DNA of 58,222 nt from a virus (IMGVR_UViG_3300045978_000161:1-58222), one strand, 5' to 3'. Counted from the stretch's first letter, positions 7,113 through 54,200 are shown. The notes: generated by a model not told the origin, from the sequence alone. Numbers and translations are program-made.

Positions 7113-7122
7113 CCCAGGAGGG
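7113..7122 (+). repeat. Start-associated motif CCCAGGAGGG (first of 9 exact copies)
   Basis: Also at 15537, 19992, 21103, 21611, 23109, 23378, 51816 and 54188; each lies 3-7 nt before a start codon. Confidence 0.9.
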
Positions 7123-7125
7123 CAA

Positions 7126-7473
7126 ATGCCAGAGCCACGCCTTGAATGCCGCGACTGCGGTGAGTCGCTAGTAGTCTGCGATCGCTGCGTCGACGATGAT
7201 GATGTCGCCTCCTCCGCCTATCCACTCACGAGCGAAGCGCGGCGCGTTTTCCACATCGGGATATGCCCCTATCATGGTGCGCTCGCCAGGCGGTGCCCGA
7301 GGTGCGTACCGACGCATCTGATCGAGCCGGTCGACAACGGCCGCGTTGGTCCATCTCCGGAAATTCCCGATCGAATTATTCGCGCAGGTATGGTGTGCCT
7401 GCTCGTCGGCTTCGTCGCCGGCGTGCTGCTCACGCTGCTCTTGCTGCCGCAGATCGCGGCGAGGATGCACTGA
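7126..7473 (+). CDS. Cys-rich protein with C-terminal TM helix
   Basis: Multiple CxxC motifs; hydrophobic tail; strong SD. Confidence 0.7.
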   Translation: MPEPRLECRDCGESLVVCDRCVDDDDVASSAYPLTSEARRVFHIGICPYHGALARRCPRCVPTHLIEPVDNGRVGPSPEIPDRIIRAGMVCLLVGFVAGVLLTLLLLPQIAARMH

Positions 7474-7682
7474 TGGGCTTCATGCTGGCGCACGGCGAGT
7501 GCTACGGGTGCAAGCGCTTTTTCAGTTTCAACCCGGATCTGGTCCCATCTATTCGGATCAACGGCAACCGCGAGCCGGTGTGCCAGAGCTGCGTCGACGC
7601 GGCGAATCCTCAGCGACTCAAGAATGGCCTGCCGCCGATCGAGGTGCTGCCCGGCGCCTACGATGCCCAGGAGTGCGGATGA
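7473..7682 (+). CDS. Small zinc-binding hypothetical protein
   Basis: CYGC...CQSC, 69 aa, TGATG coupling. Confidence 0.7.
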   Translation: MGFMLAHGECYGCKRFFSFNPDLVPSIRINGNREPVCQSCVDAANPQRLKNGLPPIEVLPGAYDAQECG

Positions 7683-8008
7683 GCCGCCGCTGCGATCGCT
7701 GCAAACGGCTCCTCGTGTTCTCGCGCGAGGAGTGCAAGTGCAAGAGATTCGAGGTTCAGAGCGATCCGAGTCCGTACAACCAGGAGTGGACAAAGCCGCC
7801 TGACAAGGGCGCGTGGACCGAGATCTACGCGGCCGATGCGGAAGCCGCGGCCGAGAAGTTCTGCGAGCGATACGACTGCGACGGCGAGTACACGATCCTC
7901 AAAGCGCAGCGCGGCCACGTGTATGTGCGCGACGATGGCGGGACCGTGACGCGGTGGTTCATCGAAGCCGAAGCGGTGCCCACCTACTACGCGCATGAGG
8001 TGAAGTGA
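7679..8008 (+). CDS. Hypothetical protein
   Basis: 109 aa, ATGA coupling. Confidence 0.7.
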   Translation: MSRRCDRCKRLLVFSREECKCKRFEVQSDPSPYNQEWTKPPDKGAWTEIYAADAEAAAEKFCERYDCDGEYTILKAQRGHVYVRDDGGTVTRWFIEAEAVPTYYAHEVK

Positions 8009-8220
8009 TGCCGCCGCTACTCGACCAGGCCGGACAATTCCGCTGCCCGCTGTGCGATTGGCGCACCGACAGCACGGGGCTTTCCGCGGCCGCGGCCGCC
8101 GTGCTCGAGCGCGCCGCGCACGATCATCTGTCGGAGCATTCGATCGCGAGCTGGATCGGGAAGATCCGCCAGCTCGAAAGAACGCGCGACGAGCTGCAGG
8201 CGAAGGTGGCGCATGGCTGA
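8008..8220 (+). CDS. C2H2-type zinc finger protein
   Basis: CPLC...HLSEH. Confidence 0.6.
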   Translation: MPPLLDQAGQFRCPLCDWRTDSTGLSAAAAAVLERAAHDHLSEHSIASWIGKIRQLERTRDELQAKVAHG

Positions 8221-8485
8221 GATCGGTCACGTGAGGACCAGTCCGGAGGAGTGCGCGCGCATGATTGCCGCGATGGACAACGGCACCCTGCAGGCTCAGG
8301 AGCTGGTGCAGAAGGGTGCGATCGACGCGCTGCAGATGCTCCAGCTGCTTGGCGTCGACGAGATCAACGTCAACAACATGCTCCACAGCCTGCGGCGCCT
8401 GGCGAAGATCATCAGCAAGGAGACGAAGCGGCGCGGCCTGTGTGTCGTCGACGTCTCCCCGCCTATTCGTCCCGGGCAGGCGTGA
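8213..8485 (+). CDS. Hypothetical protein
   Basis: 90 aa, in operon. Confidence 0.65.
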   Translation: MAEIGHVRTSPEECARMIAAMDNGTLQAQELVQKGAIDALQMLQLLGVDEINVNNMLHSLRRLAKIISKETKRRGLCVVDVSPPIRPGQA

Positions 8486-8718
8486 GCGACGCGGCCGGAT
8501 CTTTCACGATCTGGGTGGTGTACGACCATCCGCGCGACTATCCGCACTTCTATGTCGCGCGCCGCTTCGTGGTCCTGCCCGGGCGAACCGAACCGACCAG
8601 CGATGTGATGCAGTCGGGCACACTCGACACCATTCGCCAGGAGCTGCACAAGCGCGGCCTGCACGCGATCGGCCGGCACTGCAGCGATGATCCCAAAATC
8701 GTGGAGACGTGGATTTGA
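8482..8718 (+). CDS. Conserved phage hypothetical protein
   Basis: IWVVYDHPRDYP..YVARRF...DDPKIVETW pattern; GTGA coupling. Confidence 0.7.
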   Translation: MSDAAGSFTIWVVYDHPRDYPHFYVARRFVVLPGRTEPTSDVMQSGTLDTIRQELHKRGLHAIGRHCSDDPKIVETWI

Positions 8719-9158
8719 AAGCACTAACTATCTGCCAGCCGTATGCGCACCTCATCGCCGCCGGCAAGAAGCGTGTCGAGAACCGCACCTGGTCTACCGC
8801 GCACCGCGGCCTGATCTATATCCACGCCGGCAAGTCGCGCGAATGGCTGGATATCGAAGGCGATCGCGATGCCGAGTACGACATCCCGCTGAAGTCCATG
8901 GCCTTCGGCGCGGTGGTGGCGATCGCAGATCTCGTCGCGTGCGTGCATATCAATTCGGTGAGGGCCGGAACTTACGATCGGCAATTCCCGTGGCTGCAGA
9001 AGCATGAGCACACCTCCGGGCCGTGGTGCTGGATCGTCGATCACGTCAATCCGATCGGGCCCTGGCCGTACACCGGCGCGCAAGGCCTGTTCGAGATCAA
9101 TGACGACAAGCTCGATGAGATCGCGACGAGGGTTATCAACCAGGGGAGCAAGCGCTGA
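8715..9158 (+). CDS. ASCH domain protein
   Basis: KALTICQPYAHLI..GKKRVENRTW...IHAGK...GAQGLF; TTG 8715 or GTG 8709 start. Confidence 0.9.
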   Translation: MKALTICQPYAHLIAAGKKRVENRTWSTAHRGLIYIHAGKSREWLDIEGDRDAEYDIPLKSMAFGAVVAIADLVACVHINSVRAGTYDRQFPWLQKHEHTSGPWCWIVDHVNPIGPWPYTGAQGLFEINDDKLDEIATRVINQGSKR

Positions 9159-9670
9159 TGGCTGACTGGAAAGACGAAGCTCGAAACCGAGTCGCGCGCC
9201 GGGTGTTCCTGGCCGCCGAGAAACTGTGCGATGAGCCGATGGATACGAACGAGCTGGTTGGGCTGCTGCGCGCCGCCGGCCTTGAGATCGAACGCCTGGT
9301 GCCGCCCGGCTGGAAGTGCTTCCACTGCGGCGAGACGTTTACTGAGGAACCGCAGGCGCTTGCCCACTTCGGCCATGCGGAAGGGCACCAACCAGGTTGC
9401 GTTGAGAAGCTGACAGCTCCGGAGAAAAATCTGGTGCTGGCGCTGCGGAAGGTGTGCGACGAGTTCCACCGACTGCAGATTCAGGTGTCGGAGGAGATCA
9501 CCAACGACACCTACTTTTATTCCAGGCTGCGCGCGTCCCTCGCGTCCATGCCGAAGTTCAAGACGTGCATTTCGCTGCACGACGTTTTCATGCTGTTCGA
9601 TTCGATGGAAGGTCGCGCGCTCGCGGCCGAGGAGCGTCTGCAGCGTCTCGACCAGGCGCCGGAGCGCTGA
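9158..9670 (+). CDS. Zinc-finger hypothetical protein
   Basis: WKCFHCGETF...AHFG. Confidence 0.65.
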   Translation: MADWKDEARNRVARRVFLAAEKLCDEPMDTNELVGLLRAAGLEIERLVPPGWKCFHCGETFTEEPQALAHFGHAEGHQPGCVEKLTAPEKNLVLALRKVCDEFHRLQIQVSEEITNDTYFYSRLRASLASMPKFKTCISLHDVFMLFDSMEGRALAAEERLQRLDQAPER

Positions 9671-10191
9671 TGGAGCGCGGCACCTATCCAGGTTATCGCG
9701 CCGAAAAGTGCAACGGCTGTGGGCTTTGCTGCCTGACTGCGCCTTGCTCGATTTCGCAGCAGTTTGGACTCTGGCGCCACGGGCGATGCATCGCGCTCCA
9801 GTCGGCGACCGACGGTGTTGCCACCCGTTACTTCTGCGGGGTGCTCACCGCGCCGGCGACGATCAGCAAGCGACTGGCCGCGCTCACTCAGGAGGCGCGC
9901 GACGATGCGATCGGTGTCGGCCGCGGGTGCGACCACCGGGCGGCCTGGTCGATCCAGGAGGCGGTTGCGCTTCTGCAGACCCGGAATATCGCCGATGACT
10001 ATTACAAGTTCGCCGGCGACAGCTACCCGCGCGGCTGCGTGCTGCATACGCCCGACGGGCGCCACTGGCTCGTGTACCAGGGCGAGAAGGGCGCGGAGCC
10101 GACGGTGAGCCCCATGGGCCTGTCGACGGGGATCGACGTATCACGCGAGGTGCCGCTGTCACAGTGGATAGATAGAGGAGGGGTTCGATGA
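9670..10191 (+). CDS. YkgJ-like cysteine-cluster protein
   Basis: CNGCGLCC...C...C...C. Confidence 0.6.
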   Translation: MERGTYPGYRAEKCNGCGLCCLTAPCSISQQFGLWRHGRCIALQSATDGVATRYFCGVLTAPATISKRLAALTQEARDDAIGVGRGCDHRAAWSIQEAVALLQTRNIADDYYKFAGDSYPRGCVLHTPDGRHWLVYQGEKGAEPTVSPMGLSTGIDVSREVPLSQWIDRGGVR

Positions 10192-10391
10192 AGATTGAGA
10201 GCGAGTTCCGGATCCTGGAGATCGGCCGCGCGCCGGCGGGCGAGGGACGCACGTCCGAGGTGGTGCTGGAGTCGATCGACGGCCAGCGCTTGAAGGTGAT
10301 CGGTCTCGACGACGACCAGGCGCGCGAGTTGGGCGCGCTGTTCAGCGAGCCCGTCAAGGTGTCGCTGGAGATCCGCAAGAGGAATGTCTGA
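10188..10391 (+). CDS. Hypothetical protein
   Basis: 67 aa, GGAGG SD. Confidence 0.7.
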   Translation: MKIESEFRILEIGRAPAGEGRTSEVVLESIDGQRLKVIGLDDDQARELGALFSEPVKVSLEIRKRNV

Positions 10392-11248
10392 TGGAGAACA
10401 CGAAGATCGAGTGGGCCACGCACACCCTGAACTGGTGGACCGGCTGCGAGCATGTCTCGCCGGCGTGCGATGGGTGCTACGCGGAGGCCTGGGCGAAGCG
10501 CGCGGGCCGTAACTTCGCGGAGCGCCGGCAGACGAGTGGCACCATTCACAAACTACCTTTCAAGTGGGAGCGCGAGGCGATCGCGACTGGAGACCGGCCC
10601 TATGTGTTCGTCAATTCGCTATCGGACTTCTTCGACAACAAGGTGCCTGACGAGTGGCGAGAGTCTTTTTTCTCGACTGCGCGGCAAACTCCCCACGTCA
10701 CCTATCTGCTGCTTACCAAGCGGATCGGCAATGCCGCGCGGATGCTTCCGCCAGGCGGTCCTGCCGAATGGCCGAACCTGTGGCTCGGATCCACGGTGGT
10801 CACTCCGGAGGAGGCAGCCCGCGATATCCCGAAGCTGCTGCGAACGCCGGCCGCGATTCATTTCCTGTCGATCGAGCCGATGCTGGCCGCGATGAATATC
10901 GACCGCTGGCTCTGGGACGATGACCAGCGCGAGGGCCACGTCACCGGGCTCGATTGGGTGATCGCCGGCGGCGAGTCCGGAGGTCACGCCAGGCCGCTGA
11001 ACCCCGACTGGATCCGCGGATTGCGCGACCAGTGCAGCGAGGCCGGCGTCGACTTCTTTTTCAAGCAGTGGGGCGAGTGGGCGCCGCCGGATGCGGTGCC
11101 GCCGGAGAAGTGGCACGACCGGCACACCTACGACAGCGGCGCGTACATGATGCGCGTCGGGAAGGATGTCGCCGGCGCGAAGCTCGATGGGTGTCTGCTC
11201 CGTGCGCGGCCGCCGCACCAAACTCCTTCGATCAGGCTTGCTCACTAA
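10391..11248 (+). CDS. DUF5131 / phage Gp37-Gp68 family protein (radical-SAM-like)
   Basis: TKIEW...GCEHVSPACDGCYA...FVNSLSDFF...LLLTKR...GGESG...FFKQWG. Confidence 0.92.
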   Translation: MENTKIEWATHTLNWWTGCEHVSPACDGCYAEAWAKRAGRNFAERRQTSGTIHKLPFKWEREAIATGDRPYVFVNSLSDFFDNKVPDEWRESFFSTARQTPHVTYLLLTKRIGNAARMLPPGGPAEWPNLWLGSTVVTPEEAARDIPKLLRTPAAIHFLSIEPMLAAMNIDRWLWDDDQREGHVTGLDWVIAGGESGGHARPLNPDWIRGLRDQCSEAGVDFFFKQWGEWAPPDAVPPEKWHDRHTYDSGAYMMRVGKDVAGAKLDGCLLRARPPHQTPSIRLAH

Positions 11249-11260
11249 AGAGGAATCACC

Positions 11261-12016
11261 ATGGCCGATGATGCTTACAAACTGAACCTTGCCGTCGAGA
11301 CGACGTGCATGGTCAAGCGGAAGATGGCGACCACGCGCGAGAAGCTAGACAACGACACCGAAATGACGGTGTGCTGCATCTGGATCAAAGGCGTGCGCGT
11401 GTCTCGAGAAGCGGCGGAGGAGCTGGCCGGGCTTCCGATCGGATCCTTCGGCCCGCTGTTCAACGAGGCTGGAATGCCGCGCGAGCGCATGTCGATGCTG
11501 TTCCCGAAGCGCGAGCTGCTCGGCACCGGCGTGTTCGATCACCGCAAAGAGAGCGGTGCATCGCTCGCGAAGCTGGAAGTAACTGGCGCAGTTGTCGCCG
11601 ACATGCGTTTCAATCTCGACGTGCCGGACGGCGACGGGCCGACGGTGCTGATGTCGTACTCGGTTATCTGGAAGGCCGCCGGCGACGAGGTGGATCACGT
11701 CCGCCATCTGCTCGGCCAGAAGTCCTGCTTCATGAAACTGAAGTTCACGACGCCACCGACCCAGGTGCCGCTGGCGATCGACACCGACAGCCGGCCCCTT
11801 GCTGACAAGCCCGCCGGCGATCGCGCGAAGCTCGATCGCAAGCGCCAGGCCGCCGGCGAAGGTGCGGAGCCGAAGCCGCGCGGCGCCGGCGCCGTGGAGC
11901 AGCTGGAGAAGAAACTCGATCGCGGGCCCGCGGTGGGCGCGAAGTTCACGGCCGAAGCGCGAGCGGCTGCGGCGAAGAATCCCCGGCGCGAGAAGCCGCC
12001 GGCGAGGAAAAAGTAA
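11261..12016 (+). CDS. Hypothetical protein with basic C-terminal tail
   Basis: 251 aa, GAGGA SD. Confidence 0.7.
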   Translation: MADDAYKLNLAVETTCMVKRKMATTREKLDNDTEMTVCCIWIKGVRVSREAAEELAGLPIGSFGPLFNEAGMPRERMSMLFPKRELLGTGVFDHRKESGASLAKLEVTGAVVADMRFNLDVPDGDGPTVLMSYSVIWKAAGDEVDHVRHLLGQKSCFMKLKFTTPPTQVPLAIDTDSRPLADKPAGDRAKLDRKRQAAGEGAEPKPRGAGAVEQLEKKLDRGPAVGAKFTAEARAAAAKNPRREKPPARKK

Positions 12017-12291
12017 TGCTGACGATCAAACGCAAGGTGGGCCAGGGGATCCGCGTCGGCAAGACGGTGCAGATCTCCGTGCACCAGCTCAGTAACCGCG
12101 GCGCGCATCTGGTGATCAAGGCGACGGGTCTCGAATTCGAGGAGGTGCTGTTCCAGTCGCACACCTGGTCGGCGGTGATCGACGGCCATCTGCTGTCGAT
12201 CACGCTGAACGACATCGTGCGCGGCGAGGCGGTGCTGGCGTGTGAAGCGAACCGCGAGCTGCGGATCGACCGGGAGGAGGTTGCATCGTGA
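12016..12291 (+). CDS. Divergent CsrA-like protein with internal duplication
   Basis: N-terminal MLTIKRKVGQGIRVG..VQISV and C-terminal GEAVLACEANRELRIDREEV match the two ends of CsrA, with about 40 extra aa between. Confidence 0.7.
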   Translation: MLTIKRKVGQGIRVGKTVQISVHQLSNRGAHLVIKATGLEFEEVLFQSHTWSAVIDGHLLSITLNDIVRGEAVLACEANRELRIDREEVAS

Positions 12292-12551
12292 GAAAGATCA
12301 TTCGCGTGGATCTCGACGTCGGCATGAATGTGCCGATCAGCGTGGCGAAGGGCGCGGTGCTGCTGCACGTCGGGTGGCGGAACGGGCCGGCGATGTACTT
12401 CCAGGTCGACACCGAGAAGGAGGTCGTGCAGCGCCAGGTCAACTGGTATCGCAACGAGGATCCACTGCCGGCGAAGGTCGGCAACTATCTCGGCACGGTG
12501 ACGGCGCCGGAAACGCTGATCACGTATCACGCATTCGAGGTGCGGCCATGA
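12288..12551 (+). CDS. Conserved phage hypothetical protein
   Basis: 87 aa; GAVLLHVG...YLGTV...HAFE. Confidence 0.65.
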   Translation: MRKIIRVDLDVGMNVPISVAKGAVLLHVGWRNGPAMYFQVDTEKEVVQRQVNWYRNEDPLPAKVGNYLGTVTAPETLITYHAFEVRP

Positions 12552-14302
12552 GCCGCACGGCCAATCTACCGATGCGCATGGACGCGCCGCCGGCGTATAC
12601 CGAACTTCCGCAGGACGTTCCGCAGGACGCGCGGCCGCACACCTTCGTGGTGGTGGGCAACACCGGATCCGGCAAGTCCAGCTCCGCCAGGTGGGGGATT
12701 GTGGAGCCGATCCTCCGCGCCCATCGGCGCGCGGCCATCATTGACCCGACGGGCGTGTGGTGGGGCTTGCGCTTCATGCGCGACGGATCGCCCGGCTTTC
12801 GCATTCCGATCCTGGGAGGCCTTTACGGCGATGCGCCGCTGCACGACTACGACGCGGCCGCGGTCGCGCGCTGGATCGGTGAGAACGATGTGCCGGTGAT
12901 CCTCGATCTCAGTGAAATGACGATCGGCGAGCGGCATGACTTCGGTGCTGACTTCTTCGCCGCGCTGTACCAGGCGAACCGGCGGCCGCTGCATCTGGTG
13001 ATCGACGAGGCCGACGAGTTCGCGCCGCAGAATCCGATGCCGGAGACGAAGCGACTGCTGCATCACGTCGATCGCATCGTGCGCCGCGGCCGCGTGCGAG
13101 GCTTCCGCCCGGTGATGATCACGCAGCGGCCGTCCGTGCTTCACAAGAATGTGATGTCGCAGGCGTCGGCGCTGGTGGCGATGCGACTCCTCGGCTCCCA
13201 GGACCGCGCCGCGGTGGAGCTGTGGATCAAGGGCCAGGGAGATCTCGCGGCCGGCAAGGAGGTGCTGAACACGCTGGCGCGGCTCCAGGTCGGCGAAGGG
13301 TGGCTGTGGGTGCCCGGGCTCAACATCCTCAACCGCGGCCGCTTCCAGTTGTTCGAGACCTACGACAGTTCGCGCACGCCGAAGGATGACGAGCCGCCTG
13401 TCGAGCCGCCTGGTCCGTTCCCATGGGCCGACGAGTTCCGCGAGCTGCTCGAGCACGTGGTCGCCGCGGATCCGCCGGCGGATCCGGATGCGCCGCCGGC
13501 GACGGCTGATGAGCTCGCGGCTGCTGAGAAACGCGGCCGCGATGCTGGCCGGCTCCTGGGATTCGACCAGGGCTTCCATGCTGCGACGGCCGCGCTGCAG
13601 GGCCGCGTGACCGGGGTGCTCAAGTCCGCGGAGGAGTTCATGGCCGGCTTGCGTGAGACCGCGGCATCCCTCGCGAATGGCGGTGCAAATCCGCCGGCGC
13701 CGCCGGCCACGCTGGTTGTGCACCCGACCAGGCAGGCCGCTGAGGAGTGGGCGAAGAAAAACGCCATCGTCCCCAAGCCTGCTGCGCCGGCGCCGAAGCC
13801 CGCGCCGCCGGTCGCGCGTGCGCAGCTCGTGACCGCGAGCAACTCCGGCGGCGAGAAGATGCTGAAGGCGCTCGCGATGCTGCAGGAGCAGCGCCCCTGG
13901 GAAGATGTGTGCGTGCTCGCCGGGATCCTGCACGCCAACGGCAACTTCTGGGTTGGCCGCAAATATCTGCTCGGCCAGGGATACGCGACCGAAGGTGCTG
14001 GCCAGGTGCTCGCGACGCCGGCGGGAATCAAGATCGCCGGCGGCCGGCAGCCGGCGCTGTCGCGCGCGGAGATCATCCAGCTGTGGCAACACAAGCTGCG
14101 CAGCCCTGGCGGTCTCATGCTCCAGGCGATCGCCGGCGCCCGCGGCTGTCAGATGTCGAAGCAGCAGCTCGTCGCCGCGCTTGGGATCAAGCCGGACAAC
14201 GGCAATTGGTGGGGCGGGTTGAAGGCCTTGCGCAAGGCGAACCTGATGGAGCAGGAGGGCGACACCTACCGGCTCACCAGCATTGTTAGAGAAGCTCGCT
14301 GA
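12548..14302 (+). CDS. HerA/DUF87-like P-loop ATPase with C-terminal wHTH-like repeats
   Basis: Walker A GNTGSGKS; IIDPTGVWWGL; Walker B LVIDEAD; RRGRVRG; ITQRP. Confidence 0.85.
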   Translation: MSRTANLPMRMDAPPAYTELPQDVPQDARPHTFVVVGNTGSGKSSSARWGIVEPILRAHRRAAIIDPTGVWWGLRFMRDGSPGFRIPILGGLYGDAPLHDYDAAAVARWIGENDVPVILDLSEMTIGERHDFGADFFAALYQANRRPLHLVIDEADEFAPQNPMPETKRLLHHVDRIVRRGRVRGFRPVMITQRPSVLHKNVMSQASALVAMRLLGSQDRAAVELWIKGQGDLAAGKEVLNTLARLQVGEGWLWVPGLNILNRGRFQLFETYDSSRTPKDDEPPVEPPGPFPWADEFRELLEHVVAADPPADPDAPPATADELAAAEKRGRDAGRLLGFDQGFHAATAALQGRVTGVLKSAEEFMAGLRETAASLANGGANPPAPPATLVVHPTRQAAEEWAKKNAIVPKPAAPAPKPAPPVARAQLVTASNSGGEKMLKALAMLQEQRPWEDVCVLAGILHANGNFWVGRKYLLGQGYATEGAGQVLATPAGIKIAGGRQPALSRAEIIQLWQHKLRSPGGLMLQAIAGARGCQMSKQQLVAALGIKPDNGNWWGGLKALRKANLMEQEGDTYRLTSIVREAR

Positions 14303-14320
14303 ACCACAGAAGGAATACGT

Positions 14321-14713
14321 ATGGAACCTAAGTATTGGGATATCGGAGATGAGGCCCTCTTAAACCTGGTGCCAGCTCCAGAGCCACCGACTGATCCGGG
14401 TGTAGAGCTTCGGGAGCGGATCCGCGATCAGATAGACAAGAATGTCCGCGAGGCTTTGCTGCATTTCTTTCACGAGTCCACTACCTGTGGCCTTGGGGTC
14501 GATGGCGTTTATGTCGTGATCCACACGGATGTTGAGGAGGATGAGGAGGGAGAGGACAGATTCATCCGTAAATTTCCTATCAGAGAGTTGCTTGAGGACT
14601 TTGTTGCGAACTTCAAGGATGAAGATGGATCTGCATCCGAACTCTCTGAACTGTCGGCGCTATTAACAGAAATGTCAGGGCGCGTTAAACAACTTGCAGC
14701 GTCACGTAGTTAG
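14321..14713 (+). CDS. Acidic hypothetical protein, lower GC
   Basis: 130 aa, AAGGA SD, many A/T-ending codons. Confidence 0.7.
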   Translation: MEPKYWDIGDEALLNLVPAPEPPTDPGVELRERIRDQIDKNVREALLHFFHESTTCGLGVDGVYVVIHTDVEEDEEGEDRFIRKFPIRELLEDFVANFKDEDGSASELSELSALLTEMSGRVKQLAASRS

Positions 14714-14722
14714 GGAGGCACG

Positions 14723-15532
14723 ATGAAGATGGAAAACGCGGAATGGGTCGAGGCGCACCTTAGGCGGAAGCTCACACCGTTCCAGGCGAGGTGCGCGGAG
14801 ATCGTCGGCCTGATCAGCTCCGGCGCGCACAACGCGCCGGTGAAGTGGGAGTCGGTCGAATGGGAGTGGGGCGGCAAGGGCGTGATGGTGCTCTGGGGTC
14901 GCGGCTGTCTGTGCACCTGGGACTTCTGCAATCTCACGCCGCTCGTGTTCCTGTGCCATGACGCGCGGATCCGCCTGGAGATCTCGCCGGCGAGCCCGGA
15001 CAAACTCCGGCTCGTGTTCTTCCAGCGCCAGGCCGCCGGCAAGATCATGCAGCGCCACCCAGATATGACGGAGGCACTAGCCGACCATCTGCGGTGGATT
15101 CCCGACGGCCACCCGCTGCTGTGGCGCAATCATCCGGAGCGAGAATTCGAGAAGGTGGCCGAAGGCTTCAAGACAGTCGGGCAGCGCCGGCGCGAGCGTG
15201 AATTGACGGAGCGACCCACCGACGCCGATCGGGAGGCTAACCCCGGGCTCATGTCGGGCGCTGAGATTGACGAGCAGGAACGGGTTGCTAATCGTGAAGC
15301 CATGAACGCCGCCACAAAGCTGAACGCCTCGCACTTCAACGAGATCCGCATTGCGCAGATCAAGAACGGCACCCCTGCCATGACGCCGGATGAGCGCGCC
15401 TACCTTATTGAGACGATTCCGCGCTTCGAGGAGTGTTCTGTTACGCGCGAGCAGCTCGCAGCGATGAACGATCGCGCTCTGATGGACGAGTCCTATTCCG
15501 TTTGGGCAGACTATGCCTCGACGCAAATCTAA
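14723..15532 (+). CDS. Hypothetical protein (probably composite)
   Basis: 269 aa, GGGAGG SD; TWDFCNLTPLVFLCHDARIR motif. Confidence 0.7.
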   Translation: MKMENAEWVEAHLRRKLTPFQARCAEIVGLISSGAHNAPVKWESVEWEWGGKGVMVLWGRGCLCTWDFCNLTPLVFLCHDARIRLEISPASPDKLRLVFFQRQAAGKIMQRHPDMTEALADHLRWIPDGHPLLWRNHPEREFEKVAEGFKTVGQRRRERELTERPTDADREANPGLMSGAEIDEQERVANREAMNAATKLNASHFNEIRIAQIKNGTPAMTPDERAYLIETIPRFEECSVTREQLAAMNDRALMDESYSVWADYASTQI

Positions 15533-15553
15533 CTAACCCAGGAGGGCAATACC

Positions 15554-17617
15554 ATGCCTGTCAAGTTGAAGGCCGGTGTCGTGATAAAGATGCGGGTGTC
15601 CCGGATCGAACGCGATACCAAACAACCCCGCCAAACTTTCGACGAGGCTCCGCTGAAGGCGCTCGCCGACTCGATGAAGATCCGCCAGGAAGTACCGATC
15701 AAGGTCCGTGTCGAGGGCAAGCGGATCATCATTGTCGACGGTGAACGCCGCTGGCGAGCTGCCAAGATTGCCAAGCTGGAGTACATCGACGTGCTGGTCG
15801 ACGAGCGCAGTGACGCGCTCGATATCGCCGCGACGCAGCTCACCACCGCCGTGCAGCGCGAGCATCTGTCGCCGCTGGACATCGCGGAGTTCCTGGTCGA
15901 TCTGCAGAAGCGCGAGAAGGCAAACACCAACACGCTGCTGGCTGCGCTCGCGAAGCGCGGCATCACCGAGATCGGGCCGGCAAAGCTGGAGCGCGTCATG
16001 CGCCTTGTCGATCTGCCCGACTGGGGCAAGGAGTATGTGCGCAAGGGCGTGTTCGGCGAGAGCCACGGCGCCGCGGTGCTCCAGGTGGTTCGCTTCCCCG
16101 CGGTGCTGAAGCAGCTGCGCGGGCAGATTGCTAACGACATCAGCTGGAAGGGTGGCATCACGGTCAAGGAGCTGGTTAGCGAGGTGGAGCGCGCCGTGCG
16201 TGTCGCCGGCACCGACCTGAATCAGAAGTACGGCCAGGAGGAGGATCAGCGGCACTTCCCGATCGAGCAATGCTTGAAGTGCGAGTTCTACATCAAGATC
16301 GGCGGCGGGCAGTACTGTCAGAACCGCAAGCTGTTCGACAAGAAAAACCGCGAGGCGCTGCTGCTCAAGGCCGAGAAGGAAGCGAAGAAACAGGAGAAAG
16401 CGAAGGGCAACGGCCGCGAGCGCGAGGAGCCGGTGATCGAAACGGATCCGACGAAGGTGGAGCCGCGCAAGGTGAAGTTCGTCGACGCCAACGTGGTTTC
16501 CATGAAAGGTGTCCACTACGATCGCGCGCGGCCGCTGGACGATGCCGGCTTCGACAAGACGCAGTGCAATGGATGTCCGCACCGGCACCTGGCGAGCGCG
16601 AACGGCAAAGCCGATCACGAGGATGGTGTCGAGGATCACTGCTTCTATCCACCGTGCTTCGAGCACAAGAGCGCGAGCGATTCGCGCGTGCAGGGCCGGC
16701 GACAGAAGATGCGCGAGTACCTGGAGGCCTGGCTGCGGCCCGTCGTGGTGCGCGAGGCGCCGGCACGGCTCAACGCGAAGCAGCGCGCCGGCGTCCTGCT
16801 GTGGCTCGCGACCGGCGCCGTCGACCGTGGATCCGCATTCTACGGCGGGCAGATGCATGAGCACGCGGCACGCGCGACGGTGGCATTCCTGCAGAAGCAC
16901 CAGCTCAAGAGCTTCCCGCTGCTGATGGAGTTCGCCACTGCGAAGCTCGCGGAGGATCACGAGCGCCACCTGGTCGCGCTCGCGGTGCAGGTGATGACGC
17001 GCGAGCAGCTGCGCTGGTTCGCGCGCTACATCGCGATCGACCTGAATGATCCGGCGTTCGCGTATCGGATCGACGAGGGTTATCTGCGGCTCAAGCGCAA
17101 GGCGGAGATCATCGAACTCTGGAACACCTCAGCGATGTCATCGAAGCTGGAGCCGAACCTGTCTACGTCGCAGCTGCGCGACTGGTGTCTCGAGGTGAAT
17201 GCCCGCCAGAAGATCGGCGTGCCGGCCGACATCCAGGCGCTGTACGACGAGACCGAGGAGACGCGCGTCGACGAGGATGAGGACGATCTGCTCGATGAGG
17301 ACGATCAAACCGTCTGCATCGGCTGTGGCTGCTCCGACTTCGATGCCTGTCCGGACGGGTGCTCATGGGTCGTCCAAGGCGATCGCCGCGGCTACATGCC
17401 GGGCGGCAATGTCGGCGTCTGCAGCAACCCGGCGTGCGCACCTCATATGGAGCGGTTCCGCCGGCGGGACTTCACGCTGTCGGAGGTGGCCGAGAAACGG
17501 GTGGCGGAGCGCGACAAGCGCCGCAAGCAAGACGATGAGCAGCTCGCCGAAGCCGGCGGCGAGTTGGGCGAGATCCTCGCTGCCGGTAAAAAGCGGCGAA
17601 TGCCGCGGGAGGTGTGA
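15554..17617 (+). CDS. Large ParB/RepB/Spo0J family protein
   Basis: QPRQTFD..LKALADS; IVDGERRWRAA; QREHLSPLD; Cys clusters. Confidence 0.9.
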   Translation: MPVKLKAGVVIKMRVSRIERDTKQPRQTFDEAPLKALADSMKIRQEVPIKVRVEGKRIIIVDGERRWRAAKIAKLEYIDVLVDERSDALDIAATQLTTAVQREHLSPLDIAEFLVDLQKREKANTNTLLAALAKRGITEIGPAKLERVMRLVDLPDWGKEYVRKGVFGESHGAAVLQVVRFPAVLKQLRGQIANDISWKGGITVKELVSEVERAVRVAGTDLNQKYGQEEDQRHFPIEQCLKCEFYIKIGGGQYCQNRKLFDKKNREALLLKAEKEAKKQEKAKGNGREREEPVIETDPTKVEPRKVKFVDANVVSMKGVHYDRARPLDDAGFDKTQCNGCPHRHLASANGKADHEDGVEDHCFYPPCFEHKSASDSRVQGRRQKMREYLEAWLRPVVVREAPARLNAKQRAGVLLWLATGAVDRGSAFYGGQMHEHAARATVAFLQKHQLKSFPLLMEFATAKLAEDHERHLVALAVQVMTREQLRWFARYIAIDLNDPAFAYRIDEGYLRLKRKAEIIELWNTSAMSSKLEPNLSTSQLRDWCLEVNARQKIGVPADIQALYDETEETRVDEDEDDLLDEDDQTVCIGCGCSDFDACPDGCSWVVQGDRRGYMPGGNVGVCSNPACAPHMERFRRRDFTLSEVAEKRVAERDKRRKQDDEQLAEAGGELGEILAAGKKRRMPREV

Positions 17618-17618
17618 G

Positions 17619-17828
17619 GTGATTACGATCAACGTCAGGGTCAATGAAGGGACAGCGTTGCTGGCGGCCGCGCAGGAGACGATCGCGCTCGCGAGCCGAT
17701 TGAACTGCCACGTCGACTTCGTGTTCGAGGGTAAGCACTGCCGCGCGATGCCTGGCGGCTCGCCGGCGGCGTTCGCGAAGGCGATCGGCGAGGGCACGTC
17801 GCTGCGGATCATCGGGAGCGAGACATGA
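17619..17828 (+). CDS. Hypothetical protein
   Basis: 69 aa from GTG 17619. Confidence 0.55.
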   Translation: MITINVRVNEGTALLAAAQETIALASRLNCHVDFVFEGKHCRAMPGGSPAAFAKAIGEGTSLRIIGSET

Positions 17829-18340
17829 ACGACAGCTTTCCCAGTCTGCTGTTCGTCGTGCTGGTGGTGGCGCTCGTGGTGATCGCGGTCAGTAAGAGCT
17901 GCGAGCAGAAGGTGGCCGCGGTTCCGCCGGCGCCGGCGGCGGCGATCGAGCAGCCGCTGGTGCTCACCATGGAGGAATGCCGCAAGTTCCTGGTCGCCGC
18001 GGCCAACGATCGCGACAACGAGAACGTGCTGGTGTGGAACGCCTGCCTCGGCATCCAGGCTCTCGACTGGTGCGAGCTGCCGGTCGACGCGCAGCGCGCG
18101 CTACGTCGACACGGCGCCGCCGGGCGGATCTGCCCGGAGGACATCGCGCGCGAGGCGAAGTGCAATCCGCTGCAGATCAATCCGGAGACCGACAACAATC
18201 TGTCGCCGGCGGAGCTGCAGAAGAAGTCCCGGGCCTGGGCCGATTGCATGGGCTTCGAGTCGATCGAGTGGTGTGAGCTCGACCCGGCAAGCCGCAAGGC
18301 GCTGCAGGACATGGGAGCGCAAGGCCGCACCTGCATCTAG
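17825..18340 (+). CDS. Membrane-anchored or secreted Cys-rich protein with internal repeat
   Basis: N-terminal TM; WNACLGIQALDWCELP and WADCMGFESIEWCELD repeats. Confidence 0.7.
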   Translation: MNDSFPSLLFVVLVVALVVIAVSKSCEQKVAAVPPAPAAAIEQPLVLTMEECRKFLVAAANDRDNENVLVWNACLGIQALDWCELPVDAQRALRRHGAAGRICPEDIAREAKCNPLQINPETDNNLSPAELQKKSRAWADCMGFESIEWCELDPASRKALQDMGAQGRTCI

Positions 18341-18357
18341 CTTCTCAGGGAGGAGGC

Positions 18358-18873
18358 ATGAAGTTCAGGCCGCGGCCGCGACACGGCACGCACTCGATGT
18401 ACAACGGCGGCTGCCGGTGCGACGCCTGCCGGCGCGCGAATGCCGAGTACACGGCGCTGCGCAAGGCGGAGCGCGGCCGCGGCAACGCGAACAAGGTGAT
18501 CGACGCCACGCCGGCGCGGGAGCACATCAGGCGGCTGCAGCGCGCCGGCGTCGGCTACCGCGCGATCGCCGATGTCACCTCGCTGACGCATCGGATCGTC
18601 CTGGGGATCAAGCTCGGCCGCCGATTGAAGGCGCGTGAGCAGACGGTGAAGAAGATCCTGCGGGTCAACGTCGAGTGCCGCGCGGATGGCGCGCACGTTT
18701 CGGCGCGGTCGACCTGGCTGCGGATCCAGAAGCTGTGCGAGGAGGGGTACAGCAAGAAGGAACTGGCGAAGCTGCTCGATTACAAGATGCCGAACCTGCA
18801 GCTGCGCAAGAACAAAGTTACCGTGCGCAACCGCGCGCGGGTTGAGCGACTGTTCGAGAAACTAACAACGTGA
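18358..18873 (+). CDS. HTH DNA-binding protein with HG..Y..GCRC..C motif
   Basis: [20 protein letters not shown] followed by two HTH-like segments. Confidence 0.75.
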
Positions 18874-18883
18874 GGGAACGCCA

Positions 18884-19078: not shown

Positions 19079-19083
19079 GGAGA

Positions 19084-19114
19084 GGGCCGCCGGGATAAGG
19101 GGACCCGGCGGCCC
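19084..19114. terminator. Hairpin between convergent operons
   Basis: GGGCCGCCGGG-N9-CCCGGCGGCCC, 11-bp stem; U tract weak. Confidence 0.55.
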
Positions 19115-19126
19115 GTCCTGTGCGGT

Positions 19127-44506: not shown

Positions 44507-45535
44507 TCAGACGTTGAGCTTGCCGCGCAAGAGCATCTGCGGCCGCGTCGCGACGTACAGCGGATAGCTGTACAGCTCCACCTCGACGAAGGCGTTGCGC
44601 TTCTCGTCGGGGATGGTCATCGCGTAGAAGTCCTGCCCCGGGGTGTTCACCACGTCGAACCACTCGCCGGGCGACTGGACCCGCAGGAACGCTTCCGGCG
44701 CGTTGACCGGGAAGAACTTCACGCGATCCGACTGCACGGCCACCGTGCTGTTGTCGTCGGTGCCGCGGTAGTTCATCCAGCGGATGCCGCCGAAGTCGAC
44801 CGTGCTCCACGGCGTCACGAGCTGCGCGGCGAGCGCATCGGCGCGCGCCTGCTGCGCGAGCCAGATCTCCCGCACTTCCGGGTTCTTGATCAGCGCGTCG
44901 TAGAACGTGTCGCCGGCGAGCGCTGCCACGAAGGTGGAAGGACCCCAGGCACCCTTCGATGCGCGCTGCATCTGCCGGATGATCTGGTTGCACTTCTCAC
45001 GGAACAGACCGCCAGTGAGGGCCGCGAACGCGAAGCCGATCTCCGCCGGCTGGCTGATGCCCCACTCGTCGAACCAGTTGTAGAGCACGGTGCCGTCGGC
45101 GTCGGTGACGATGCCCTGGACGGCGCCGAGTCGCATGTGCTCGTGCGTCAGCTCCAGGTCGTTGCGCAGCCTGACCGCGCGCTCCAGCACTTCGGTCTGC
45201 ACCTGCTCGAACTCGCTTTCGGTGCCGAAGGCGCGGATGCCCGCGATCTCCGACGCATTCAGCGTGTCGCCTTTCGCCAGGCGTGCGGTGCGGAAGTCCC
45301 GCAGATCCCGGGTGCCCTTCACCTGCTGCGGCAGCGGGGCGCCGCGCGGCGTGGTCTGCACCAGCGAGAGCACGTTCTCCTTGCGCTCGATGCTCACCTT
45401 CTCCGTGCGCACCGAGCGCGGCGTGAAGATGCCGAGAGTGCCGAGAAGATTCGGCTGGTACTCGACCACTTGCAGCGCTGCGGTCAACTCCTGCAGCGTG
45501 AAGGCGTTGTCGGAAAAGATGTCCATGCCAGCCAT
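44507..45535 (-). CDS. Major capsid protein (lambda gpE family)
   Basis: DIFSDNAFTLQELTAA; THEHMRLGAVQG; SYPLYVATRP. Confidence 0.95.
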   Translation of the reverse strand: MAGMDIFSDNAFTLQELTAALQVVEYQPNLLGTLGIFTPRSVRTEKVSIERKENVLSLVQTTPRGAPLPQQVKGTRDLRDFRTARLAKGDTLNASEIAGIRAFGTESEFEQVQTEVLERAVRLRNDLELTHEHMRLGAVQGIVTDADGTVLYNWFDEWGISQPAEIGFAFAALTGGLFREKCNQIIRQMQRASKGAWGPSTFVAALAGDTFYDALIKNPEVREIWLAQQARADALAAQLVTPWSTVDFGGIRWMNYRGTDDNSTVAVQSDRVKFFPVNAPEAFLRVQSPGEWFDVVNTPGQDFYAMTIPDEKRNAFVEVELYSYPLYVATRPQMLLRGKLNV

Positions 45536-51764: not shown

Positions 51765-51828
51765 TCCTGGGGGACAATTCTCTTACCGGCCAATTCCGGC
51801 CGGCAATGACAGTCCCCCAGGAGGGCAT
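51765..51828 (+). promoter_or_regulatory. Structured leader of the second accessory cassette
   Basis: 11-bp inverted repeat TCCTGGGGGAC/GTCCCCCAGGA enclosing CCGGCC-N6-GGCCGG; overlaps the SD. Confidence 0.65.
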
Positions 51829-53034
51829 ATGTCTCAGAAGAAACCCGCTGGCCTCAAGGCCGGCAAGATGAAAGCGAAAACCGCGAGCCTCACCAGCGGC
51901 CGCGTCCCTGCGACCCGCAACGCGAACGGCTCGATCAAGACGCCGGCGGAACGCGAAGCCGCCAGCGCTGCCAGGATGGCGAAGAATCTCGCGGCGAAGG
52001 TGCCGGCCGGCGACAAGCCGGGCAACGGCCACAAGCCGGCGACGATGCAGCAGGCGGCCAGCACCTCGCCGACCATCCCGGAAAAATCCGTGGTGGCGAC
52101 GATCGCGCCGGCGCCGGCGGCCACTCCTCCGAAGGCCGAAGCCGAAGCACTGGGCCCCGCGACCCATGTGGATCTGCCGGTCAAGTTCCTGTCGGCTGCG
52201 CTCGCGATCGCGCCCAAGGGTGACGTGCGGCACTACCTGAACGGCGTGCTGGTCCAGCAGATCGACGACAAGCAGCTGCGCCTGGTGGCGACCGACGGCC
52301 ACCGGCTGTTCGTCGCGCACCTCGATCCGGGCTGCGTGCTCGATTGGGCGCAGGGTGGCGGCATCATCATCCCGCGCGAGGAGCTGGAGCGCGTCGTGAA
52401 GTACATCGGCAAGGCGGCCGAGCTGCGCGTGCAGTTCGGACTGCGCCACCCGTCGATGAAGCTGCTGGAGATCGCCGGCATCGGCGAATTCACGGTGAAG
52501 CCGACTGACGGCCCGTATCCCGACTACCAGCGTGTGGTCGACGAGGCGGGCGCATCGTTGGGCGGCGAGCGCGAGCAGCTGGCTGTGTCGCAGATCGACA
52601 GCAAGTACCTCAAGTCCGCCGGCGTCGTGGCTGCGACGCTGGAGAGCAAGGGCATCATCCCGTTCCTGTCGGCGCCTGGATCCCGGGCTCCGAGCGTGTT
52701 CGCCTTCTCCGAAGTGCCGAACGCGCTGCTCTACATCATGGGCCAGGAGGGCCGTGCCGAAGCGCTGCCGGCCGCCACGATCAAACTGTTCGGCGTCGAC
52801 GCGATGCGCACTGCGCTCGCGAAGATCGAGGAGCAGATCGAGGTGTCCGAGCGCAATGCCAAGACCACCAAGCACGAACACTTCCGAGTGGCGAGCTTGC
52901 AGAAGGTGGAGCGTCTCAAGCTGCGTGCCGAGCAGCTGCGCACCAACCTCGCGCCGAAGTTGCCTGCACCCCAGACGGGTGAGTCCAAGCCCGCGACACC
53001 CGATGCCTCCGCGTCGGGTGCTGCGGTTCACTGA
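51829..53034 (+). CDS. Partial DNA polymerase III beta-clamp-like protein with disordered N-terminus
   Basis: DVRHYLNGV; LVATDGHRL; DGPYPDYQRVV. Confidence 0.8.
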   Translation: MSQKKPAGLKAGKMKAKTASLTSGRVPATRNANGSIKTPAEREAASAARMAKNLAAKVPAGDKPGNGHKPATMQQAASTSPTIPEKSVVATIAPAPAATPPKAEAEALGPATHVDLPVKFLSAALAIAPKGDVRHYLNGVLVQQIDDKQLRLVATDGHRLFVAHLDPGCVLDWAQGGGIIIPREELERVVKYIGKAAELRVQFGLRHPSMKLLEIAGIGEFTVKPTDGPYPDYQRVVDEAGASLGGEREQLAVSQIDSKYLKSAGVVAATLESKGIIPFLSAPGSRAPSVFAFSEVPNALLYIMGQEGRAEALPAATIKLFGVDAMRTALAKIEEQIEVSERNAKTTKHEHFRVASLQKVERLKLRAEQLRTNLAPKLPAPQTGESKPATPDASASGAAVH

Positions 53035-53041
53035 GGCAGCA

Positions 53042-53079
53042 CGGGGGGCCGGGCGTGTGCCCGGCTCCTCGTTTCTTTT
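53042..53079 (+). terminator. Rho-independent terminator
   Basis: GC stem around a GTGT loop followed by TTTCTTTT. Confidence 0.8.
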
Positions 53080-53164
53080 CGTCCAACTACCCGATGGATG
53101 CCCGATGAACCCCCCACTGCATGACAATCTAACTCTCGATTTTCCAGACCCGCAGGGAGAAACC

Positions 53165-53752
53165 ATGTCCAGGATCCCGCCCACAATCCACGGTCTCAAC
53201 GCGCTGTACTGCATCAGCGCGCTGCAGAAGTTCATTCGCCGCGGCATGGAACGCGAGGCGATGGAGGTGGCTGTCGAGCTGCACCTCACCTCGAAGAACT
53301 TCGCCAGCATGGTGTTCAACCGGCTGGAGGTGATCTGCCACGAAGATATCGACACCCTCACGCAGCCGTGGCTGGTGCCATTCGTCGCGACGGCGATGGA
53401 GCAGTGTCGCAAGTGGTACGACCCCGACAAGTTAGGCCGGTCACGGATGCCGATGGGTAACGCCATTCGGCTCATGTGCCGTGCCCAGAAGTCCCGCGAG
53501 GGCGACCACTTCCAGGCCGCGATCGGCTGGCGAGCGGTGCTGACGCACTACAAGCCGGAGCTGCCCGACTGGATCCACGACCAGCACACCACCATCGGCC
53601 GCAAGGCCGGGCGCGGTGTCGAGTACTTCCGTTCGATCTCAACCCAACTGATCCCGACTCCTCCGGCGAAAGACCGCTACGAGGATGAGGCTTACGAAAT
53701 GTGGACGCTGAAAGCCGAGCGCGAGCGCGTCCAGGGAGGCAACGATGAGTGA
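53165..53752 (+). CDS. RarA/MgsA C-terminal-like protein lacking the AAA+ core
   Basis: ISALQKFIRRG; RLEVICHEDI; AQKSRE; DQHTTIGR. Confidence 0.75.
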   Translation: MSRIPPTIHGLNALYCISALQKFIRRGMEREAMEVAVELHLTSKNFASMVFNRLEVICHEDIDTLTQPWLVPFVATAMEQCRKWYDPDKLGRSRMPMGNAIRLMCRAQKSREGDHFQAAIGWRAVLTHYKPELPDWIHDQHTTIGRKAGRGVEYFRSISTQLIPTPPAKDRYEDEAYEMWTLKAERERVQGGNDE

Positions 53753-54185
53753 GCAACAAACGATGAGCTGCGTGCCGATCACGCCGACGCTGGTGCCGCT
53801 GGATCAAAGGATCCAGACCTTGCCCAAGCACTTCGGCGCCGGCCGGCTGATGCAGGTGTTCGAGAACCGCGTGTACGACACGATGGATGCCCAGGCCGCT
53901 GGCTACAAAGGTGGCTTCTGGGAGTTCATCGAACTGTCGAACGGCGGCTTTTACATGCGCCCGCCGGCGGGACCGCTCGCCGGCAAGTGGATGCTCGATT
54001 GCGAGAGCAACGGCTACCAGGGCGAGCTGTCGGCCGATGCGATCGGCATCGTCATGTGCCTGCACGCCTATTCGCACCTGTCCTTCGAGTTCCCGACGCA
54101 GGTGCTGGCCGAGAAGTTCCACGCGCTGCGCGAGTACGCGATGGATCACCCCGAAGCTAACGAGATCATTCAGGCGATCGACTGA
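53745..54185 (+). CDS. Antirestriction protein, ArdB/KlcA family
   Basis: YKGGFWEF.ELSNGGFYM.P; NGYQGELSADAIGI; LREYA..HPEA..I..AID. Confidence 0.92.
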   Translation: MSEQQTMSCVPITPTLVPLDQRIQTLPKHFGAGRLMQVFENRVYDTMDAQAAGYKGGFWEFIELSNGGFYMRPPAGPLAGKWMLDCESNGYQGELSADAIGIVMCLHAYSHLSFEFPTQVLAEKFHALREYAMDHPEANEIIQAID

Positions 54186-54200
54186 CACCCAGGAGGGACC

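Follow-up and report, generated by a model that had tools for sequence, protein, structure and literature searches.

Among described systems, the closest to the element reported here are the start-associated sequences (SAS) of Cluster K mycobacteriophages, which follow the 13-bp consensus GGGATAGGAGCCC and occur in 11–19 copies per genome (PMC3203893). According to the available part of that report, SAS lie 3–7 bp ahead of start codons, mostly ATG, in a single orientation and at non-structural genes only, and they combine an AGGAG core with conserved, non-pairing flanks, complementary outer triplets and, in about half of the cases, an upstream inverted repeat (PMC3203893). Their function was left open by the authors, who suspected a host or phage factor (PMC3203893), and the accessible sections of a 2025 account still treat it as open (PMC12699233). 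Here, we describe a ten-base module, CCCAGGAGGG, in the virus record IMGVR_UViG_3300045978_000161:1-58222. This whole IMG/VR record, linear and 58,222 bp in length, was analysed and is referred to below as the window. The phage also encodes two CsrA-family proteins, and the module is weighed both as a cis-acting translation element and as a possible CsrA operator.

A second precedent is found in phage T4 (PMC3014915). Its RegB cleaves early messages at GGAG in their intergenic initiation regions, and some 30 messages are repressed by RegA. A third is the occurrence of CsrA-type proteins on mobile elements. In the accessible part of one survey, csrA alleles were counted in 30 of 2517 phage genomes, loss-of-function tests of them were called for, some csrA-bearing phages were noted to infect hosts without a chromosomal csrA, and CsrT was described from an integrative and conjugative element (ICE) of Legionella (PMC7366521). 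The plasmid protein RsmQ recognises GGA and A(N)GGA at the tops of hairpins, its targets being host messages and host sponge RNAs (PMC9928087). In the literature on phage CsrA, no study was found tying such a protein to sites on the phage's own genes.

A start-associated module at non-structural genes

The module CCCAGGAGGG occurs in nine exact copies in the window, all on the plus strand and none on the minus strand (9 forward, 0 reverse; Table 1), in full agreement with an initial annotation of this DNA that had listed the nine. Across 100 dinucleotide-preserving shuffles, the same sequence appeared 0.16 times on average and at most once, no shuffle reaching nine (0/100), and Markov backgrounds of order 0–5, by which the annotation had proposed to gauge both strands, predict only 0.04–0.48 plus-strand copies, with a Poisson tail for nine of at most 2.4e-9. 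Every exact copy stands 3–7 nucleotides (nt) ahead of the ATG or GTG of a plus-strand open reading frame, and only non-structural genes are served in this way. Four near-copies named at the outset (20198, 20645, 23898 and 25363) are likewise present, each ahead of a start, and a fifth, at 7666, had been missed.

Gene calling with our own codon-bias caller, with two starts (7126 and 20659) corrected by hand, gave 89 genes, 42 starting on the plus strand and 47 on the minus strand, these totals being approximate. The core CCAGGAG, common to the nine exact copies and the five variants, precedes 14 of the 42 plus-strand starts and 0 of the 47 minus-strand starts, and the original observation that the motif precedes plus-strand early or accessory genes, with none seen before minus-strand late genes, holds. 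The remaining 21 of the 35 plus-strand copies of CCAGGAG lie outside starts, ten as in-frame Gln-Glu codons of plus-strand genes, ten antisense to minus-strand genes and one in intergenic DNA. A Dcm-type site (CCWGG) within the module was dismissed as coincidental, CCAGG being common window-wide (230 on the plus strand).

The genes served by the module are mutually unrelated, and three of the nine behind exact copies belong to no family. Two plasmid homologues of radC have CCGGAG and CTGGAG sites in place of the module (n = 2), a comparison suggesting that it is not inherited together with radC or the genes it serves. The ten-mer is also rare elsewhere: among 120 viral stretches, each chosen for an RBS-like (ribosome-binding site, RBS) copy of it, 111 had one copy and nine had two. 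Clearly, the motif is a real, strongly non-random and gene-class-specific start-associated module.

In anatomy and placement, the module matches the mycobacteriophage SAS, though it is not a member of that family. Both are short, asymmetric, multi-copy sequences (11–19 copies for SAS; nine exact copies and five variants here) situated 3–7 positions before start codons, in one orientation, at non-structural genes of unrelated families. Both have AGGAG within conserved flanks that do not pair with 16S rRNA (assuming the usual CCUCC tail in the host), and both have complementary outer triplets, GGG...CCC in SAS and CCC...GGG here. An inverted repeat occurs just upstream in a subset of each, namely in about half of the SAS and in three of the nine exact sites plus one variant here. 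The differences are equally plain: the SAS consensus has 13 bases against ten here, and the module does not match it with up to two changes. The upstream repeats of the window can pair in RNA as GC hairpins, whereas in the authors' view the arms of the extended SAS (ESAS) do not (PMC3203893), and the sequences are unrelated. SAS phages infect actinobacteria, and the accessible sources report no CsrA gene for them. The phage of the window, in contrast, carries a concrete candidate reader in CsrA. The mycobacterial hosts of SAS phages are not known to encode CsrA.

More than a Shine-Dalgarno sequence

The module consists of AGGAGG, a perfect Shine-Dalgarno core, preceded by CCC and followed by G. 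It had been cautioned at the outset that AGGAGG could simply be a perfect Shine-Dalgarno sequence, an objection that does not survive the flanks: thirteen plus-strand starts have AGGAGG, and at nine of them it is enclosed in exactly CCC...G. Neither the CCC nor the final G can pair with the usual 16S tail (assumed to be CCUCC), which argues that the module is more than a Shine-Dalgarno sequence. Counted over the window, AGGAGG has these flanks in 9 of 37 cases on the plus strand and in 0 of 23 on the minus strand. The spacers that follow the nine exact copies, 3–7 nt long, contain only A and C save for one T and one G. Where at least 10 nt separate a plus-strand start from the gene upstream, the module is present in 12 of 18 cases (nine exact copies and three variants); where a gene overlaps the preceding one, its site is mostly weaker and constrained by coding.

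The late genes (25838–51295, minus strand) have an RBS type of their own, CTGGGAG(A) or GGGAG, seen for example at the starts at 41584, 42875, 44118, 51295 and 28418 and also at the capsid gene (44507–45535). In other words, there are two Shine-Dalgarno dialects in one phage, divided by gene class, early versus late. Since the late genes do without the module, the major capsid gene included, its use is not just a matter of the strongest site for the host ribosome.

Marking of early messages at their initiation regions for post-transcriptional shut-off by a phage-made effector is what RegB and RegA accomplish in T4, RegB targeting early and not late GGAG sites. It is therefore conceivable that some other trans-acting factor reads the module, such as a RegB-type endoribonuclease, a RegA-like repressor or a small RNA. 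The T4 case provides the precedent of class-marked early RBSs with a phage-made effector, within the available part of its description (PMC3014915), and many plus-strand genes of the window have no known family. On the other side, the profile scans (Pfam or PHROGs), which covered 49 distinct proteins out of 89 called genes, yielded no candidate, and neither RegB nor RegA has a homologue among them. The sites in T4 are unstructured and rich in A/U, and the candidate effector here is CsrA. Neither strand of the window holds an exact complementary copy of the module, and Rfam gave nothing relevant. We consider a factor of this kind quite unlikely.

Hairpins and repeated leaders

The complementary outer triplets had suggested that CCC and GGG could close an AGGA loop over the Shine-Dalgarno sequence. 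Such a mini-hairpin can form, with −3.6 to −4.0 kcal/mol in isolation, and minimum-energy folds of short contexts contain the CCC/GGG stem at six of the nine exact sites. In a context of ±50 nt, however, the pair probability averages 0.27, reaching at least 0.5 at two of nine sites and falling below 0.1 at four. Two of the RBS regions even fold less well than their own shuffles (z +1.70 and +2.08). Being identical, the nine exact copies are uninformative on covariation, and the five variants, in which the 5′ CC(C) is retained and the 3′ GGG lost, show none. Given the weak pair probability and this one-sided conservation, the hairpin over the Shine-Dalgarno sequence is possible but unsupported.

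A stronger GC hairpin lies upstream of the exact sites at 19992, 23109 and 51816, and a GC-rich repeat precedes the variant at 25363. At the first two sites, the hairpin belongs to a 95-nt leader that is present twice (Table 1), and the one ahead of 51816 is similar to it. The leader might serve as promoter, processing site or stabiliser; a consensus promoter scan saw nothing. A search of viral contigs for the hairpin-plus-module pattern gave 0 matches.

Promoter-early stem-loops of T4-type phages have reportedly been proposed as recombination boundaries for gene cassettes. In the same way, the module and its 95-nt leader could form a boundary at which cassettes are swapped or copied by recombination between co-infecting relatives, with RBS function kept and identity arising from copying. 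The module does bracket consecutive small accessory genes (19992–25372), two sites have the 95-nt leader in common at 80–89% identity, and the genes concerned (RadC, ParB_N, DUF3560, DUF6011 and the anti-restriction protein) are typical mobile accessory genes. Two other phage stretches described below, L218 and L200, have arrays of small genes with a hairpin plus RBS before each. Yet most homologous recombination needs a stretch longer than ten bases, and at six of the nine exact sites the likeness ends with the module. The radC homologues elsewhere are without it (n = 2), and the tightly kept spacing to the start codon speaks for translation. We hold a recombination boundary to be an unlikely explanation.

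Two CsrA-family genes

The canonical csrA had been placed at the end of the early operon, and it is indeed a real family member and the last plus-strand gene ahead of two minus-strand genes. Its product matches Pfam PF02599 at E 6e-25 (87.4 bits against a cut-off of 27; positions 1–52/53) and, among solved structures, E. coli CsrA (1y00) at E 9e-20, with nine CsrA/Rsm sequences matched at E 9e-20 to 2e-12. The aligned residues are L2, L4, R6, R7, V40, I42, R44 and I47, against Leu2, Leu4, Arg6, Arg7, Val40, Val42, Arg44 and Ile47 of E. coli CsrA, which we take to be the RNA-binding residues of its strands 1 and 5. Matches to this csrA were found in 91 phage records.

The second CsrA-family protein, encoded at 12016–12291, is more divergent. 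It scores 36 bits in Pfam (cut-off 27) on profile positions 1–36 only, has seven same-length homologues among 1.84 billion representative proteins, and as a family profile matches CsrA structures at 1–38 and, weakly, at 71–89. An AlphaFold2 (AF2) model built from eight sequences is all-beta, with a predicted local distance difference test (pLDDT) score of 91.9 and nine predicted strands, roughly 2 × 5, the longest of which is probably two strands fused; folding of the single sequence gave a pLDDT of 46. In superpositions, the model reached Z 4.9 with RsmA (1vpz_A, residues 38–91) and Z 4.6 with RsmF (4kji_A), unrelated beta domains scoring higher, and Foldseek returned nothing at E ≤ 0.001. 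BLASTP gave no alignment with the canonical phage CsrA, tblastn found no copy in cultured phages, and a word-based homologue search retrieved only the protein itself. Conservation in the family falls on strand 1 of the first core and on the Arg-bearing strand 5 (IDREE) of the second. From the family profile and the model, we infer that two CsrA cores are fused in one chain without the C-terminal helices, an arrangement that would leave one intact RNA site of two.

Phage F116 (L004) has two annotated CsrA-like genes, at 3032–3238 and 20001–20372, one of them among the virion genes and the other within the leftward early operon, so that the phage of the window is not the only one with a pair of CsrA genes.

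The module as a possible CsrA operator

With these genes at hand, the modules could be the operators of a phage-private Csr system, where CsrA, perhaps together with the tandem protein, would bind AGGA, block the 30S subunit and shut off dispersed early and accessory genes as CsrA accumulates. We hold this to be possible, if doubtful. Besides a canonical csrA with aligned RNA-binding residues and a second family member in the same operon, the module itself has suitable features. At all 14 sites, AGGA within AGGAGG provides an A(N)GGA that overlaps the Shine-Dalgarno sequence, the form preferred by Rsm proteins at hairpin tops in the available part of the RsmQ work (PMC9928087). Such sites are class-specific, with A(N)GGA within 22 nt of 26 of 41 plus-strand starts versus 7 of 25 late minus-strand starts. 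The flanks that lie outside the Shine-Dalgarno core are fixed, the module is apparently not inherited with radC, and the 5′ side of GGA is better conserved in the variants than the 3′ side. The CsrA site selected in vitro is reportedly also longer on its 5′ side. In addition, the distant stretch L049, with csrA in a matching gene order, has a five-copy GGA start module of its own (see below).

Known CsrA/RsmA/RsmE operators and the CsrB/RsmZ-type sponge RNAs have in common with the module a GGA within AGGA over the Shine-Dalgarno sequence, a possible short GC-closed hairpin loop and many repeats. Classical CsrA operators, however, contain two GGA sites, which are bridged, whereas each leader here has a single one and no surplus of second sites: GGA is found 2.11 times per −70..+30 window at exact sites versus 2.14 times at other plus-strand starts, the site at 23109 has only one GGA in that interval, and the two or more GGA sites within dimer reach expected of a CsrA operator are lacking. 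Known sites are degenerate, whereas the copies here are identical; the hairpin is only 3 bp long, poorly predicted and without covariation; and these are candidate sites only. In contrast to the sponge RNAs, they are on many separate genes and not on one RNA. Comparable modules also occur without csrA, as in the L200 record and in SAS, and no binding data for a phage CsrA are on record in the accessible part of the survey of mobile alleles (PMC7366521). RsmQ, CsrT and the phage alleles resemble the present case as canonical CsrA proteins encoded by mobile elements; no repeated module on the genes of the element itself has been connected with any of them.

A fuller version of the operator idea is a private Csr circuit, in which a CsrA dimer and a tandem CsrA with one RNA site would read a ten-base operator on every independently translated early or accessory gene, a protein-level timer with no transcriptional switch. 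This we find rather improbable.

The target could also be the host's CsrA, either with modules tying early translation to the host Csr state or with early messages acting as a sponge for host CsrA. Nine to fourteen AGGA sites on early messages would suit such a role, and plasmid RsmQ, as partly described, is a case of a mobile element engaging the host Rsm network (PMC9928087). Nevertheless, no tRNA genes, att site or close relative in genomes were found that would point to the host and hence to its CsrA; the available text of the survey records csrA-bearing phages in hosts without a chromosomal csrA (PMC7366521); and the hairpin and dual-site weaknesses apply as they do for the phage's own CsrA. 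Of the explanations considered, this is the least likely, and very unlikely in itself.

Start modules in other phage stretches

The exact ten-mer was found in none of eight other csrA-bearing phage stretches (L001–L003, L018, L049, L176 and the full records F116 and phi297), a set made up of three IMG/VR contigs retrieved by searching with the CsrA protein, three encountered incidentally, and the two full records. This absence counts against a CsrA operator. A survey was also made of 206 viral stretches, partial and in some cases picked for csrA or for the motif, for any dispersed GGA-bearing ten-mer in at least four copies, each followed by a start. Four of the 206 qualified: the window with its nine copies, L049, L218 and L200. 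With the window excluded, repeated start modules were present in 1 of 8 csrA-bearing versus 2 of 197 csrA-less stretches, a difference that is not significant and leaves co-occurrence of csrA and start modules as a hint, not a result. High ten-mer counts in L050, L212 and L189 proved to be tandem or acidic coding repeats and not start modules.

L049, a viral contig of 49% GC with csrA at 14192–14335, has five copies of GGAAAATCCC between 1718 and 3301 (plus strand), in the form (A/G)GGAAAATCCCCC, each ahead of a start codon, and its gene order is that of the window: a phrog_3193-like gene, a ParB-like gene and csrA. In L218, a 7.3-kb viral contig, five consecutive small genes (4130–5993, plus strand) each follow CCCAGGAGG(A/G)C, with an upstream hairpin and CTGATGAGT at three of the five. 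This fragment has no csrA and no protein in common with the window. Its module has the core seen in the window, here in an unrelated phage. L200, a record of 70,333 bp with terminal repeats and a CheckV completeness of 100%, has four start leaders composed of a GC hairpin and CAAGGAACGA (8673–12423, minus strand), and the complete record gave no CsrA match.

A different arrangement was seen in the csrA-bearing contig L018 (csrA at 12322–12483), where GGA-containing and G-rich repeats are dispersed over about 8160–15000, with GGGACGAGGG occurring six times and hairpin units of GGAGCAAAAGGGG flanking csrA. These could be sponge-like RNAs or elements of the repetitive extragenic palindromic (REP) type.

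A cis-acting translation module as the slightly favoured reading

Taken together, the evidence leads us to favour, slightly and tentatively, the view that the module is the phage's own start-associated translation module, acting mainly in cis; an operator for the phage CsrA is nearly as likely. The module is used where free intergenic DNA precedes the start of a non-structural gene. Under the cis-acting reading, its Shine-Dalgarno core would give strong, independent initiation, and the G-poor A/C flanks with the short CCC clamp might prevent the GC-rich message from sequestering the G-rich core. The copies would be kept identical by selection or by copying in the phage lineage, because unrelated genes carry the module and radC homologues elsewhere are without it. 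The two CsrA-type proteins would not be needed for module function and may act on host messages instead, although the fixed flanks may also mark messages for a trans-acting factor.

In favour of a cis-acting role, position and spacing are of the RBS type at all 14 sites. The prevalence of the module at starts with an upstream gap, the A/C spacers and the two RBS regions that fold less well than their shuffles point the same way. The hairpin lacks covariation and has low probability, and the second GGA usual in CsrA operators is missing. The eight other stretches with csrA are without the exact ten-mer, whereas the csrA-less L200 and the csrA-less L218 fragment have start modules. The SAS of mycobacteriophages show the same anatomy.

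Several observations weigh against it. Four further positions are fixed at nine of the 13 AGGAGG starts, which selection for Shine-Dalgarno strength leaves unexplained, and the insulating role of the CCC clamp is our own suggestion. The late genes, major capsid included, never use the module and have CTGGGAG(A)-type sites, and two CsrA-family genes stand in the same early operon. The distant, syntenic and csrA-bearing L049 has its own five-copy GGA start module. Finally, copies are either exact (nine) or well off (five), a pattern that looks like stringent recognition or recent homogenisation and not like loose selection for strength.

Genome context

The window has a G+C content of 65% and an estimated CheckV completeness of 81%, and the sequencing runs that contain its sequence are labelled soil metagenome. 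DNA searches of cultured phages and plasmids found no close cultured relative, matches being limited to pieces of radC, DUF6011 and DUF5131; the best match of the terminase among cultured phages is Vibrio phage VP882, at 41% identity. Nor did any relatives come to light when viral contigs were scanned with single proteins, namely the ParB-like one and the terminase. For the ParB-like protein, viral contigs gave only ParB domains at up to 33% identity, and reference genomes at most 44%, over the N-terminal domain. Its C-terminal part aligned with one 3.6-kb metagenome contig, L166 (45% identical), which in the part examined has neither module nor csrA. Homologues at 58–63% identity exist, encoded on contigs of 21–49 kb, and are known as proteins only. 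The ParB_N protein (15554–17617) and its closest homologues have a Cys-rich C-terminal extension (CIGCGC...C..GC.W...GVCS) that is absent from more distant homologues.

A promoter and terminator scan of the window gave no more than shuffles give, and Rfam had nothing over threshold, the top match being BjrC68 at 54929–55004 (29.3 bits against a gathering score of 39). When two RNA-library and two DNA runs were compared with 6500–26000, fragmentary identical contigs were obtained, and no module differed; the differences seen comprised only four isolated cases and one cluster inside radC, the latter likely from other organisms. Presence in RNA libraries is, of course, no proof of transcription.

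A helix-turn-helix (HTH) protein of the Cro/YdaS type (6372–6677, minus strand; PF15943, E 2e-8) is encoded at the divergent junction, its gene pointing in the direction opposite to the first module gene. As a candidate repressor at that junction, it weakens the initial impression of a genome with no evident CI. An anti-restriction protein gene (53745–54185, plus strand; phrog_10132, E 1e-35) adjoins the DnaN-like gene and an ATPase-like gene. Together, the plus-strand genes for the anti-restriction protein, RadC, ParB_N and DUF3560 look like a plasmid leading-region set. The phage also encodes a TET-associated glycosyltransferase (55232–56005, minus strand; PF20691, E 6e-7) and a DUF5131 protein (10391–11248, plus strand; E 1e-76), which hint at modified DNA bases.

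Table 1. Modules, leaders, CsrA-family genes and gene blocks of the window
Feature	Position	Strand	Remarks
Exact module CCCAGGAGGG	7113–7122	+	RBS of 7126–7473, Cys-rich protein with C-terminal hydrophobic helix (membrane-anchored); first plus-strand gene past divergent junction
Variant CCCAGGAGTG	7666–7675	+	RBS of 7679–8008; within 3′ end of upstream gene
Exact module CCCAGGAGGG	15537–15546	+	RBS of 15554–17617, 687-aa ParB_N protein
Exact module CCCAGGAGGG	19992–20001	+	RBS of 20006–20197; GC hairpin and 95-nt repeated leader upstream
Variant CCAGGAGCGC	20198–20207	+	RBS of 20212–20397
Variant CCCAGGAGAT	20645–20654	+	RBS of 20659–21090
Exact module CCCAGGAGGG	21103–21112	+	RBS of radC, 21116–21601
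Exact module CCCAGGAGGG	21611–21620	+	RBS of DUF3560 gene, 21624–22703
Exact module CCCAGGAGGG	23109–23118	+	RBS of 23123–23374 (GTG start); second leader copy and hairpin upstream
Exact module CCCAGGAGGG	23378–23387	+	RBS of DUF6011 gene, 23395–23922
Variant CCAGGAGGAG	23898–23907	+	RBS of 23915–24283
Variant CCAGGAGGAT	25363–25372	+	RBS of 25377–25616 (GTG start); GC-rich inverted repeat just upstream
Exact module CCCAGGAGGG	51816–51825	+	RBS of DnaN-like gene, 51829–53034; GC hairpin about 20 nt upstream
Exact module CCCAGGAGGG	54188–54197	+	RBS of 54201–54683, no family match
95-nt leader repeat, copy 1	19909–20003	+	5′ part, then GC hairpin (CCGGCC...GGCCGG), then module
95-nt leader repeat, copy 2	23027–23120	+	80–89% identical to copy 1
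csrA, canonical	18884–19078	+	64 aa; own RBS GAGGGAA with AGGGA motif, not the module
Second CsrA-family gene	12016–12291	+	91 aa; predicted single chain with two CsrA beta cores in tandem
Leftward block	196–6677	−	
Long rightward block	7126–19078	+	csrA at its end
Two leftward genes	19127–19782	−	
Rightward small-gene array	20006–25837	+	
Virion and packaging block, leftward	25838–51295	−	
Rightward block	51829–54920	+	
Leftward block	54944–57986	−	

Significance

Since 2011, SAS have come on record from hundreds of mycobacteriophages with their reader unexplained, and csrA is carried by about 1% of phage genomes without a known target. The phage of the window brings a start-associated module and csrA together in a different lineage, from a GC-rich soil community. 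Even if the module acts in cis only, SAS-type modules would not be peculiar to actinobacteriophages, three more having been found in uncultured phages (L049, L218 and L200). If a private Csr circuit were true, start-associated sequences in general would be operators for RNA-binding proteins of the phage's choosing, and phage csrA genes would gain their first targets.

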